Assembly (NCBI RefSeq): GCF_003044035.1
Contig: NZ_NVQC01000028.1
Coordinates: 60,001 to 92,000, forward strand
DNA: 32,000 nucleotides
Direction of reading: 5' to 3'
Origin: Candidatus Methylomirabilis limnetica
Lineage (GTDB): Bacteria > Methylomirabilota > Methylomirabilia > Methylomirabilales > Methylomirabilaceae
The number at the start of each line of letters is the position of its first letter. The first letter of the stretch is position 1. The notes beneath the pieces were generated by a model, which was not told where the DNA came from, searched no databases, and was given only the letters and a program-made list of their open reading frames with translations. Below, one piece after another: positions 7,021 through 10,694 of the stretch. The position numbers were made by a program, and so were the translations under genes.

Positions 7021-7509
7021 ATGCGGTTCTATGCTGTCGCTCTGACGGTCATCCTGCTCGATCAGGCTTCAAAGCTGTTGATCCAGGCCACGATGCCACT
7101 CGGCCACAGCATCCCCATCATCTCCGATCTCTTCGCGATCGTCCATGTCATGAACCCAGGCGCGGCATTCGGCCTCCTGGCCGATCAAGCTGCATGGGTT
7201 CGCAAACCTCTCTTCATTGGCGTCTCTCTCCTGGCCATCGGGTTCATCCTGTACCATCGCCATTGCAGGGTTGACGATCATCCGCTTACTATGCTCGGGT
7301 TGAGCCTGATCCTTGGGGGCGCTGTTGGCAACTTGGTGGATCGATTGAGAATCGGCATGGTCATCGACTTCATCGATGTTCATTACTATCAGTACCACTG
7401 GCCTGCATTCAATGTCGCGGACTCCGCCATCACCGTCGGCGTGTCGCTCATGATGCTCACGTTGATCCTTGGAGAACGTCGGGAGCGAGATCGGGGGCGG
7501 GCCTCATGA
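7021..7509 (+). CDS. lspA: Lipoprotein signal peptidase (signal peptidase II)
   Basis: LLDQASK, NPGAAFG, GGAVGNLVDR and FNVADSAITVG motifs with four hydrophobic segments. Classical ileS-lspA linkage. Confidence 0.9.
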   Translation: MRFYAVALTVILLDQASKLLIQATMPLGHSIPIISDLFAIVHVMNPGAAFGLLADQAAWVRKPLFIGVSLLAIGFILYHRHCRVDDHPLTMLGLSLILGGAVGNLVDRLRIGMVIDFIDVHYYQYHWPAFNVADSAITVGVSLMMLTLILGERRERDRGRAS

Positions 7510-8582
7510 GCGGCGATGAGATTCGCGAACTCATAGCTGACGGCTCGGCCACCGACCTGCGCCTGGACCGCTACCTCTCTACCGCGACAGGGCTCCCACG
7601 ATCACAGATCCAGCGCCTCATCAAAGCCGACCGGGTGCTGGTCGATGGTCGCCACCCAAAGGCGAGCGCCACGGCTCACCCGGGCCAGCACATCAGCCTC
7701 TCTATCCCTCCGCCACAGCCGTCCACCCTCACACCCGAACCGATTCCCCTCGACATCCTGTACGAAGATACTGACATTCTGGTCCTGAATAAGTCGGCTG
7801 GGCTTGTCGTGCACCCCGCCCCCGGGCATCAGACCGGGACGCTGGTCCACGCCATCCTGCATCACTGTCCGGATTTACCCGGGATCGGCGAGGAACGACG
7901 GCCAGGGATCGTTCACCGGCTCGACAAAGAGACCTCTGGGGTGATGGTCGTGGCTAAAACCGATACGGCCATGGCCTCGCTCGCCACACAATTTAAAGGA
8001 CGTCGAGTGAAGAAGACCTACATCGCGCTGGTGCATGGCGAGGTCAAGCAGCCGGAGGGGAAAATCGAGGCCGACATCGGCCGTCACGAACGGGATCGAA
8101 AGCGGATGGCGGTGTGCACACGCAAAGGTCGGGAGGCGGTGACCATCTACCGGGTGATGAAGCGCCTCAATGGCTCCACACTGCTACAGCTCCAGCCACA
8201 CACCGGCAGAACCCACCAGATCCGGGTCCACCTGTCCGCGATCGGACACCCGGTGGTGGGCGATAAGCTATATGGGGGACGAAGGGAAAGGAAATGGCGA
8301 ATGGAGAGTGGAGAGTGGAGAGTGGAGGCGGAGCGACACCTCCTGCATGCCTGGAAACTCGGTCTGTTCCACCCGAGGACTGATGAGTGGATGGAGTTTG
8401 AAGCCCCGCTGCCGCTGGACTTCACAAGCTGGCTTCACGCAGAACCATCGACGGGAACCACCCCGCTCGGATCCCCTCCCGCCAGCGGTTCTTCCGGGCA
8501 CCTCGCACCCCGCACTTCGCACCGTTCACGGTTTCTCCACCGTCACGATTCTGGTGGAGCCACACCGCAGGATCTTTCCTAG
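7506..8582 (+). CDS. rluD: 23S rRNA pseudouridine synthase, RluD subfamily
   Basis: S4-like N-terminus (LRLDRYL), catalytic HRLDKETSGVMVVAKT, and TGRTHQIRVH. The ATG overlaps the lspA stop as ATGA. The last ~45 codons read through a repeat and a hairpin, so the functional C-terminus is uncertain. Confidence 0.85.
   Translation: MSGDEIRELIADGSATDLRLDRYLSTATGLPRSQIQRLIKADRVLVDGRHPKASATAHPGQHISLSIPPPQPSTLTPEPIPLDILYEDTDILVLNKSAGLVVHPAPGHQTGTLVHAILHHCPDLPGIGEERRPGIVHRLDKETSGVMVVAKTDTAMASLATQFKGRRVKKTYIALVHGEVKQPEGKIEADIGRHERDRKRMAVCTRKGREAVTIYRVMKRLNGSTLLQLQPHTGRTHQIRVHLSAIGHPVVGDKLYGGRRERKWRMESGEWRVEAERHLLHAWKLGLFHPRTDEWMEFEAPLPLDFTSWLHAEPSTGTTPLGSPPASGSSGHLAPRTSHRSRFLHRHDSGGATPQDLS
8293..8334 (+). 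repeat. Six in-frame heptamers (AATGGCG AATGGAG AGTGGAG x3 GCGGAGC) inside rluD
   Basis: 42 nt with exact 7-nt periodicity, translated as WRMESGEWRVEAER in the variable loop between the YGG and LHAW motifs. Confidence 0.75.
8498..8524 (+). repeat. GCACC-type heptamer repeat, copy 2 (inside the rluD 3' extension)
   Basis: GCACCTCGCACCCCGCACTTCGCACCG, 23 of 27 identical to 6929-6955. Confidence 0.6.
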
Positions 8583-9095
8583 TGACAGGTCGAGTGCCAT
8601 CACGCGAAGGTCCGCACTCCAATAGCACTCGGGGTCCTTGCAAGGACAAGGCCTGACAACTAAGCCATTGATCGTCGGTTCTATAGGGGCGGAATGTTCA
8701 GTAAAAGCCCCAACCGCTGCCGCGTAGTCGGCGCGATTGGCGGCGCACCATAACTGCTAGTCCCCGTTCGAATCGATACAGGCTCAGCTAAAGAGACACC
8801 GCGATTCGAGCCAACGGCCAGTGACGTTCTCGGCCTTCCGACTGACTACAACATCCTTAGTCCATCGAGAGGCGAGACAATTTGCTCGCGGTTTGAAGGT
8901 TCACTACGAGCGGCGGGTTGTCACTTACTCACCTGCCAACCGCTGCAACATGGCGACTTTCCCCTATCAGGCAGAGAAGAACTCCGGCGGTGTAGCAGTT
9001 TTATTGGAGAGGTACCCCAACCTTCAGCTTGCTGAGGCGTTTCTACGACGATTTTATGAGATTGCGTGATCCTGAAGCTGCATCTACTGGAACAA

Positions 9096-9188
9096 CTAGG
9101 CCATGAACGAAAGTACCATAGCAACCGTCACGAAGAGCAACAAACCACCAGCCGCAATCCACAGCAATATTGTATCGCCACCATCCAT
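9096..9188 (-). CDS. Small hydrophobic peptide, 30 aa (MDGGDTILLWIAAGGLLLFVTVAMVLSFMA), downstream copy of a tandem pair
   Basis: Hand translation of the minus strand. ATG at 9188, SD AAGGGGGA (9194-9201) with a 5-nt spacer, TAG stop. One predicted TM helix. Paralogous to 9205-9294. Confidence 0.45.
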   Translation of the reverse strand: MDGGDTILLWIAAGGLLLFVTVAMVLSFMA

Positions 9189-9204
9189 TGAAGTCCCCCT
9201 TAGT

Positions 9205-9294
9205 TTAGATAAACGAAATCACCATAGCAACCGTCACGAAGGTCAACAAGCCACCAGCCGCAAGCCACAACAGTATCGTATCACCTCGATCCAC
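9205..9294 (-). CDS. Small hydrophobic peptide, 29 aa ((V/M)DRGDTILLWLAAGGLLTFVTVAMVISFI), upstream copy of a tandem pair
   Basis: GTG at 9294, SD AAAGGGGG (9300-9307) with a 5-nt spacer. The TAA stop lies 3 nt before the SD of the next copy. Differences between copies are mostly synonymous or conservative. Confidence 0.45.
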   Translation of the reverse strand: MDRGDTILLWLAAGGLLTFVTVAMVISFI

Positions 9295-9368
9295 TGAAGC
9301 CCCCTTTATTTTACTGGTTAGTGATTACCCCGGTCATTCCACAACATCCACCGCCAGATGTGTTTCGG

Positions 9369-9397
9369 ATTGTATCCTACAGAGGTCAACCTTGCAA
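9369..9397 (-). promoter_or_regulatory. Candidate sigma70-type promoter (TTGCAA-17 nt-TACAAT) driving the mini-ORF pair
   Basis: Minus-strand read: TTGCAA (9392-9397), 17-nt spacer, TACAAT (9369-9374). About 68 nt upstream of GTG 9294. Confidence 0.4.
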
Positions 9398-10074
9398 CTA
9401 TCTATGAAGAACCGGTCTCGTAACGAGTATAGCAACGACGGAGCCACCCTACCAGCGTAGTATAACATCCCGCAGTTCAGAAACCTAACGAAAGCTTTGC
9501 CGCATCGGCCCACACCATTCTTCCCGGAACCCGTAAGGACGGCAGCTCGCAACCCCGCTTTTTTTGCTGCCATGAGCCTTTGTTCCATGCAGATCAATCT
9601 TAGGTAGATCTTCTCTGTGTGCCTGATTGGAGCCGACGGCCAACGCCAACGTAGAAGTCGATATGTCCTTCGATTAAGAGCAGTCCGGAACTCTACTCTC
9701 TGACATGCAAACTTCGTGAAGAAAGTTAACTGAGGTAGAACCTATTGTCAAGACAAAAATGCAGTATCTGGACAGGGCGATGTGACGTCCCATCCACGCT
9801 CTCTCGTTCGCCTAACAAGGGCTCTCTGGCGTGGTTGACGAACGCCTCAAAGACCGCGCCAGGGAAGGGGGGTTCCTCGCACCTTTTGGGGTGGTTTACT
9901 GGCCCGAGCAGGCGCACCGGGAGCAATGGAAAGAAGGAATCCCCTGAGCACCGCTGACTAGAACTCCTCGGAATGGGCATCAGTGAGCCGGCGAGTATGC
10001 CAATGTCAATATAGGGATCGCTCGTACCACTCGCCGCAGAAAACGGGTACTATTTTAGAGTGGTTACTCACCCA

Positions 10075-10103: not shown

Positions 10104-10223
10104 TTGAACATGCCCCAAGATGCTCAGCGTAAGAGGCGCACCAGGGGTCGTCTGGACGGTCTCCACAATGTCAGCGTAGCGGATAGCAACATAACCCTGC
10201 TTGACGCGAGGAGGTATCGTGCC

Positions 10224-10694
10224 ATGTTGCCAAAATATCAGAAACTGCTGGTGACTACAGATCTCTCACCCCTCGGAAACACCGCAGTCCTCCATGCCTA
10301 TGCTATCCTGGCAGAGCGTGGCGGCACTGTCATCCTTTGGTGTGCGGTTGACGTGTCAGGGATTCCGGACCCGCTCTACGCTCAGCCCACGCCTGGGGAG
10401 ACGCTCGCTGAGGAGCGGACGGAGATCCGGGAAAAGCTGTTCTCCTCACTGGAAGCACTTGTGCCTGAGGAGGTTCGTGCAGAGGGAAAGGTGACCACGA
10501 AGATACGGGTAGTGGAGGTCTCCGGACCGATCCATGATACGATATGCCAAGAGGCTGCAGCTCAGGAGGTGGACCTCATCGTGATGGCATCCCATGGCTA
10601 TTCCGGGATGAAGCACCTGCTCCTGGGCTCAGTGGCAGAGCATGTGGTGCGGTCAGCCGATCGCCCCGTTCTCATTATCCGCGGCCGAGAGTGA
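10224..10694 (+). CDS. Universal stress protein (UspA family)
   Basis: KLLVTTDLS at the N-terminus and the C-terminal ATP-binding-type motif DLIVMASHGYSGMKHLLLGSVAEHVVRSADRPVLIIR. ATG 10224 is preceded by GAGGAGG at 10208-10214 (9-nt spacer to the ATG). Confidence 0.85.
   Translation: MLPKYQKLLVTTDLSPLGNTAVLHAYAILAERGGTVILWCAVDVSGIPDPLYAQPTPGETLAEERTEIREKLFSSLEALVPEEVRAEGKVTTKIRVVEVSGPIHDTICQEAAAQEVDLIVMASHGYSGMKHLLLGSVAEHVVRSADRPVLIIRGRE

Follow-up and report, generated by a model that had tools for sequence, protein, structure and literature searches.

Small membrane proteins are badly under-annotated. Those that have been described include non-toxic modulators of larger membrane proteins, such as MgtS (31 aa), AcrZ (49 aa), KdpF (29 aa) and CydX (37 aa), with kdpF and cydX lying in operons with the gene of their partner. 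An open reading frame (ORF) of short length can also be part of a dual-function RNA, as in RNAIII/hld of Staphylococcus aureus, SgrS/SgrT and AzuCR, and in the type I systems txpA/RatA and bsrG/SR4 an antisense RNA overlaps the 3' end of the toxin gene. Tandem type I toxins, such as ZorO/ZorP (29 aa), Ibs and Ldr, are peptides of about 30 residues with one hydrophobic helix, encoded by tandem copies in long intergenic gaps with nucleotide similarity beyond the ORF; they occur in restricted lineages, and annotation easily overlooks them (Fozo et al. 2010, PMC2887945). Here we analyse a locus that shares all these traits, a tandem pair of mini-ORFs on the minus strand of a 32,000-nucleotide stretch of Candidatus Methylomirabilis limnetica (positions 60,001 to 92,000 of contig NZ_NVQC01000028.1; hereafter the window). 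The Methylomirabilota are nitrite-dependent methane oxidisers and their relatives, and our full-text literature search turned up neither a small-protein family nor a type I toxin family described for this phylum. Our best reading of the sequence comparisons is that the locus is not a canonical type I toxin and should be filed as a new family of small membrane proteins.

The mini-ORFs occupy a tandem duplication at 9106-9313, for which Tandem Repeats Finder reports a period of 106 bp, 2.0 copies, 84% matches and a score of 304. The unit consists of a Shine-Dalgarno sequence (SD), an ORF and a 16-nt spacer. Copy 1 (9205-9294, minus strand) has a GTG start and a TAA stop and encodes 29 residues, MDRGDTILLWLAAGGLLTFVTVAMVISFI (ORF translation VDRGDTILLWLAAGGLLTFVTVAMVISFI; (M)DRGDTILLWLAAGGLLTFVTVAMVISFI with the GTG read as methionine). 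Copy 2 (9096-9188, minus strand) has an ATG start and a TAG stop and encodes 30 residues, MDGGDTILLWIAAGGLLLFVTVAMVLSFMA. The SD of copy 1, AAAGGGGG (9300-9307), lies 5 nt before the GTG; that of copy 2, AAGGGGGA (9194-9201), precedes its ATG by 5 nt and follows the copy 1 stop by 3 nt. A previous inspection of these letters without database searches (the sequence-only reading) had described two units of about 106 bp on the minus strand, each with its own SD, start and stop, with 5-nt spacers and an upstream stop 3 nt from the downstream SD, and all of this agrees with the repeat and ORF coordinates. It had counted 7 synonymous and 5 residue-changing differences between the copies; our recount over codons 2-28 gives 7 synonymous and 4 nonsynonymous changes, which together with I29M makes the same total. 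Its expectation that ORF callers with a 60-aa cutoff would miss both genes failed: the JGI/IMG, ENA and Logan pipelines call the mini-ORFs, under the name 'hypothetical protein' (copy 1 in ENA and JGI; copy 2 in JGI, Logan and ENA).

We searched for relatives with a word-indexed search, a degenerate-pattern scan of species-representative genomes and a scan of JGI metagenomes. The word-indexed protein search returned a single protein (P0001), from locus L001, and a second such search, queried with other family members, returned no matches. The pattern scan identified L006-L009, from three metagenome-assembled genomes (MAGs), two labelled Ca. Methylomirabilota and one Patescibacteria with the same synteny; the scan of JGI metagenomes added L010-L016. 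Both exact peptides are also present in a public protein collection, from four short metagenome contigs of the same organism as the window (99% identity). The resulting comparison set holds 13 full copies, corresponding to 12 distinct core DNA sequences from about nine lineages. Apart from L001, these lineages show two gene arrangements, group A (the window and L010-L014) and group B (L006-L009, L015 and L016). As far as these searches reach, the peptide family would seem to be confined so far to Ca. Methylomirabilota and related metagenome contigs. The contig of L008 (DATMXF010000169.1) is labelled 'Patescibacteria group bacterium'; its synteny and near-identical sequence match Methylomirabilota contigs, and it is probably misbinned.

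In every one of the 13 full copies there is an SD, the start codon (ATG or GTG) keeps its position, and the frame closes with a stop after 29-32 codons. We compared the six reading frames by Nei-Gojobori counts over the 81-nt ungapped core. The peptide frame has a ratio of nonsynonymous to synonymous proportions (pN/pS) of 0.20 and no stops, against 0.44-5.1 in the other five frames, and the variable columns are distributed 12/4/17 over codon positions 1/2/3. The sequence-only reading had proposed to check in related genomes that the minus-strand frame is the conserved one, and this frame is indeed the best of the six. In six non-overlapping sister pairs taken together, 37.5 changes are synonymous and 15.5 nonsynonymous, against an expected nonsynonymous share of 73% (binomial P ~6e-11, omega 0.15). 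Copy 1 of the window and its orthologue in L014 differ by 5 synonymous and 0 nonsynonymous changes, and the only within-species single-nucleotide polymorphism inside the ORFs is synonymous. The neighbouring Usp gene has an omega of 0.21-0.39 in the same genomes; by this comparison of substitution rates, purifying selection on the peptide is as strong as on Usp. We conclude that the mini-ORF is very probably a real coding sequence under purifying selection.

The opposite possibility is that the mini-ORFs are chance open frames in duplicated non-coding DNA, or that the 64-aa ORF on the plus strand (9103-9297) is the real gene. The peptides are at the lower limit of length for gene callers, they match no known family, and the antisense frame likewise stays open (0 stops). 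Against this, the synonymous bias is strong in the peptide frame only, and the SD, start and stop are kept in every full copy. Because 106 is not divisible by 3, as had been pointed out from the sequence, the 64-aa ORF runs through the two units in different frames, and its pN/pS is 0.44 (0.20 in the peptide frame). Its length and ends vary among the single-copy relatives, and its sequence is absent from a collection of 15 billion proteins. We rejected it as a gene and regard the view that the mini-ORFs are non-coding as effectively refuted, with only a minute residual probability. The 82-aa ORF at 8821-9069 (plus strand) was rejected as well, its frame being lost in L011, and neither of these plus-strand ORFs has a family match. 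Although some callers favour the plus-strand ORFs, we regard them as artefacts. Metagenome pipelines call ORFs of 77-87 aa (L002-L004) at 8821-9069 (plus), 9334-9597 (minus) and 9726-9980 (minus). These have no family match, and in L011 or the window itself their frames are interrupted or displaced; they are probably not genes.

The mini-ORFs lie in a 1.6-kb gap without any conserved large ORF, and before calibration the whole gap is 70-83% identical among relatives. We took the synonymous divergence of Usp between the same genomes as a neutral yardstick (dS of 0.05 for L014, 0.23 for L011 and 0.30-0.69 for group B). With a dS of 0.05-0.69, the 65-85% identity of the flanks is about neutral, and we discarded the idea that the entire gap is a conserved non-coding RNA. 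Codon positions 1 and 2 of the peptide have an identity of 0.89-0.96 in six of seven comparisons and of 0.80 with L011. The leader and the third codon positions are at the neutral level, and the distal 3' untranslated region (UTR), at 0.27-0.80, does not exceed the neutral expectation. Among the non-coding segments, just one is slightly better conserved than synonymous sites, a block of about 46 nt after the stop (9050-9095, minus strand; GUUCCAG.AGAUGCAGCUUCAGGAUCACGCAAUCUCAUAAAAUC), with an identity of 0.72-0.98 against a yardstick of 0.55-0.95. Because only codon positions 1 and 2 clearly exceed the yardstick, the peptide is the main selected element, and by this calibration its ORF is the only clearly constrained element of the gap. 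We also observed that Usp has diverged less at synonymous sites than the non-coding DNA next to it.

The peptides of the family are 29-32 residues long, and their best 19-residue Kyte-Doolittle window scores 2.3-2.5. AlphaFold2 (AF2) predicts a single helix over residues 3-29, with a pLDDT of 94. The acidic N-terminus MDRGD, which carries all of the charges (positions 2, 3 and 5: D, R or G, D), is followed by the helix TILLWLAAGGLLxFVTVAMVxSF and by almost no C-terminal tail, only 1-4 uncharged residues coming after F28. Residues W10, F19, S27 and F28 are invariant, as are A12, G14 and G15 in a small-residue patch at positions 12-15, which reads AAGG in most copies and AVGG in L010 and L011. 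These predictions strongly support a single transmembrane (TM) helix. Searches of Pfam, NCBIfam and PADLOC at E <= 10 gave no family match, except for one chance match of 11 bits, and PDB gave no match to the peptides; the sequence-only reading had likewise recognised no known family. A HMMER profile search of 1.84 billion representatives returned only the peptide's own cluster, which indicates a narrow family and argues against the peptide being a fragment of a larger membrane protein, a possibility we rejected on these grounds. A precursor of a ribosomally synthesised and post-translationally modified peptide or of a bacteriocin also seems unlikely, as the anionic hydrophobic peptide has no leader and there are no modification or export genes nearby.

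In these features the peptide resembles MgtS, AcrZ, KdpF and CydX: it is like them in size, in having one TM helix and its own strong SD, in the purifying selection acting on the helix and in a small-residue patch suited to helix packing. It has no detectable sequence similarity to them. Unlike kdpF and cydX, its gene forms an independent unit with a long 3' UTR and no candidate partner in the operon.

Most relatives have a single copy of the gene (L001, L007/6, L008, L009, L010-12, L015 and L016). An apparent tandem pair in MAG nzgw240 (L006 and L007) was rejected: the two contigs overlap by 120 identical bases and correspond to one copy. In L013 and L014 there are three units, the middle one of which is decayed (L013:55-144, L014:2974-3063), with 27 nt lost, including the start codon, and a unit spacing of 79 nt. 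This shows an ongoing birth and death of units, probably by unequal crossing-over. The two copies of the window differ from each other at 13 nucleotides and from L011 at 15-19, and each groups with its counterpart in L014; the duplication is therefore placed after the split from L011 and before that from L013/L014. The comparison of the units shows that the window lineage duplicated a minimal cassette of SD and ORF, which would yield a bicistronic pair behind one promoter, and this duplication is specific to that lineage, including L013 and L014.

The candidate promoter lies about 68 nt upstream of copy 1, as the sequence-only reading had noted, with a -35 hexamer TTGCAA (9392-9397, minus strand) and, after 17 nt, a -10 hexamer TACAAT (9369-9374). 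On its own, the motif at 9397-9369 is not significant (3 promoter-like matches against 1.0 +/- 1.1 in shuffles), and the argument for it is its kept position in relatives, where it was recovered independently in L008 (10/12 matches) and L011 (9/12). In 7 of 10 sequences, the -10 hexamer reads TACAAT or TATAAT at the corresponding place in the alignment. The -35 hexamer is TTGCAA or TTGTAA in L011, L010, L014 and L008, and is weak or absent in L007, L009, L015, L016 and L001. With a transcription start near 9362, the 5' UTR would span about 68 nt (9295-9362) and include the conserved leader GCTAACCAG...AAGGG. Near the putative 5' end there is a small stem-loop, CAUC-UGGCGGUG-GAUG (9345-9360, minus strand), in which 85% of cells are paired and 2 pairs carry changes on both sides, a signal that does not reach significance against shuffles. 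A sigma54-type motif spotted by eye in the leader (TGGCGG-N6-TTGT) was rejected, its spacing being wrong and the GG not conserved. Further upstream, the same-species contig L002 carries an 8-nt C-rich insertion (ACCCCCCG), aligned to about position 9874 of the window in non-coding DNA.

At the other end, the 3' UTR of the relatives runs for about 230-365 nt to a GC-rich hairpin followed by a T-run; group B has TAGCCGGGCGC...GCGCCCGGCUUUUU there, and L011, L013 and L014 have a weaker form. This terminator-like hairpin is conserved in relatives, for example at L014:3480-3510, L011:2415-2445 and L008:6400-6435. In the window lineage the GC hairpin is gone, removed by a deletion of about 28 nt whose junction lies near 8785. 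Its transcript probably terminates instead at an imperfect GC-rich hairpin followed by CUUUUAC (8700-8744, minus strand), which would make the 3' UTR about 395 nt long. This hairpin is part of the minimum free energy (MFE) fold of the tile 8645-8764 (minus strand) and is aligned in L013, L014 and L011, and it was not flagged by a simple terminator scan. Between the ORFs and the terminator there is no further same-strand gene, and the genes that follow are convergent; we discarded a leader peptide or attenuator on these grounds.

This layout, with a short ORF near the 5' end, a transcript of several hundred nucleotides and a terminator hairpin, is also that of RNAIII/delta-haemolysin, SgrS/SgrT and AzuCR/AzuC, and some covariation in the non-coding part is a further likeness. 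The locus could accordingly be read as a dual-function RNA, in which the transcript of about 0.4-0.7 kb would itself be regulatory or structured; in the relatives, the ORF accounts for only about 90 nt of the unit between promoter and hairpin. RNAalifold proposes seven helices in the 3' UTR. Of their cells, 92% are paired, and sliding the partners lowers this to 31-40%; changes on both sides occur in 19 cells, a number reached by 0 of 500 shuffles (8.0 +/- 2.2 cells). One of these helices, the fourth of the alignment (UUGGGG-UACCU-CUCCAA; 9004-9020, minus strand), has changes on both sides in 4 of 6 pairs over 9 sequences. The sense strand scores mildly better than the antisense strand, with covariation terms of +0.18 and +1.27, respectively; the opposite strand folds nearly as well. 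Overall, 10 of 42 pairs have changes on both sides and the net covariation term of RNAalifold is about zero, for a structure derived from the same nine related sequences that were used to test it. Folding of the sense tiles is unremarkable (z = -1.2 to +1.3). Only the tile 8765-8884, which includes the site of the GC hairpin lost from the window lineage, has an unusually stable fold, two distal hairpins with z = -3.0 on the plus and -1.2 on the minus strand, whose inner stem GACUA/UAGUC covaries with GGCUA/UAGCC in L011; these hairpins could belong to the distal 3' UTR or to a plus-strand RNA downstream of the adjacent RluD gene. A structured 3' UTR is possible rather than demonstrated.

Several points count against a dual-function RNA, for which a base-pairing function would be hypothetical. 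Strong selection is confined to the coding sequence; the non-coding part changes at the neutral rate or faster, and the window lineage deleted the terminator hairpin and kept the ORFs. No Rfam family matches the region at the gathering threshold, the only hits being chance snoRNA-like matches with E ~0.4. The peptides of RNAIII/delta-haemolysin, SgrS/SgrT and AzuCR/AzuC are amphipathic or soluble, in contrast with the TM helix encoded here. We judge this explanation to be quite improbable.

A type I toxin-antitoxin locus was one of two suggestions of the sequence-only reading, the other being a small membrane peptide. In such a locus, the peptide would damage the membrane and its translation would be held down by an antisense or trans-acting small RNA (sRNA) that escaped our scans. 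We applied the criteria and predictors of Fozo et al. 2010 (PMC2887945), and several of them fit: a length below 70 aa, a single TM segment, tandem copies, an AT-richer intergenic site and the distance to the flanking genes. The AT-richer setting, also part of the sequence-only reading, is borne out by a GC content of 0.48 in 9001-9500 against 0.55-0.63 around it. The turnover of copy number, with the decayed unit in L013 and L014, the narrow, lineage-specific distribution and the different genomic context of L001 point the same way. One candidate for the antitoxin is an antisense RNA that would start from a weak plus-strand promoter at about 9029-9057 (TTGCTG-17-TTTTAT; TTACTG-17-TATTAT in L008) and run into the 3' end of the ORF, in which case the slightly conserved post-stop block would be its non-coding 5' part.

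Other observations count against a toxin. In ibs/sib, ldr/rdl and zorO/orzO the repeated element is a full module of promoter, toxin and sRNA, whereas the 106-bp unit holds only an SD and an ORF, without room for a promoter or sRNA gene per copy, and both copies share one promoter and one 3' UTR. The peptide lacks the polar, charged or bulky C-terminal cluster of these toxins, the polar or charged cluster being one of the published criteria (PMC2887945). The plus-strand promoter, found by eye, has a poor -35 element, and most sequences lack the conserved A at position 2 of its -10 element; in a consensus scan of the window, L008, L011 and L016, no sigma70-like promoter comes up on the opposite strand. 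Over the ORFs, the antisense strand is less stably folded than shuffled sequences (z = +0.0 to +2.0). Sequestration of the SD is not consistent, its partner in the MFE fold differs in every relative, and RNAalifold finds no conserved lock between SD and anti-SD among the relatives, the unpaired probability of the SD being 0.10-0.75. There is no match to the toxin models of Pfam, NCBIfam and PADLOC and no sequence similarity to any toxin family model, and the gene is mostly single copy and beside Usp. From the original suggestion, the membrane peptide thus stands, with its selected frame and single TM helix, and most of the testable toxin features do not. The canonical type I reading is weakened, and we consider it unlikely.

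The surroundings of the gene suggest a different role. In the window, one side of the gap is bounded by an RluD-type pseudouridine synthase gene (7506-8582, plus strand; downstream of ileS and lspA), which converges on the peptide unit, and the other side by the Usp gene (ORF from 10104), followed by a Smr-domain gene. The Usp ORF at 10104-10694 (plus strand), which starts from TTG 10104, is probably 40 codons too long; both conservation and gene callers favour a start at M41 (ATG 10224). In group A, Usp lies upstream of the peptide unit and is divergently transcribed. Group B has the order CstA, inositol monophosphatase, YtxH-like, DUF948, peptide unit and a convergent Usp; the upstream neighbour was at one point considered TadE-like and was identified as DUF948 instead. 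The surroundings in group B thus appear stress-themed, with Usp as the constant neighbour, adjoining the peptide gene in 8 of 9 independent lineages. In L001, downstream of the peptide copy (1560-1640), there is a frame, LDEFVFRFSRRT, which we take to resemble the C-terminal motif of an IS1595-type transposase; this hints at a remnant of an insertion sequence and at a third genomic context.

We propose that the peptide is encoded by a small independent transcription unit. A sigma70-type promoter would start the transcript near 9362, both cistrons would be translated from their own SDs, and the RNA would run through the long 3' UTR to the hairpin terminator. The peptide may then insert into the cytoplasmic membrane, where the invariant small-residue patch might pack the helix on another membrane protein or on itself, possibly within a stress or starvation response. 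This last suggestion is made because the gene adjoins Usp and, in group B, also CstA, the YtxH-like gene and DUF948. The full statement, of a lineage-specific membrane peptide with its own unit, duplicated into a pair in the window lineage and engaged in helix packing during stress or starvation, is one we lean towards with modest confidence.

Several points count against this proposal. Its functional part is drawn from the neighbourhood and from features of the sequence only. The peptide is never co-transcribed with its Usp, CstA, YtxH or DUF948 neighbours, and L001 has a luciferase-like monooxygenase upstream and no Usp on its 1.9-kb contig. A tandem, intergenic and AT-richer setting with copy turnover would also be typical of type I toxin loci. 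Finally, the sample is small and its members are closely related (12 distinct DNA copies from about nine lineages, with a Usp dS of 0.05-0.69), and the greedily chosen sister pairs may not be fully independent.

If the locus were nevertheless a new RNA-controlled membrane-toxin module or a dual-function RNA, a joint claim that we rate as possible though unlikely, a structured transcript of about 0.4-0.7 kb would release a 30-aa membrane peptide only under stress, with control exerted through the long 3' UTR or through an antisense RNA from the conserved post-stop block. It would then be the first such system described in Methylomirabilota. On the reading that we prefer, that of a small membrane protein, the locus adds an unannotated family to the bacterial small membrane proteins, a kind already known, and will not surprise specialists. 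It shows that the heuristic by which a tandem of hydrophobic mini-ORFs is equated with a type I toxin can mislead. The locus offers a clean, evolutionarily supported case of a lineage-specific 30-residue peptide with a putative promoter of its own, stress-gene neighbours and a recent tandem amplification. If, under starvation or stress, the peptide modulates the membrane or one of its complexes, it would give a handle on the stress physiology of these hard-to-culture organisms.

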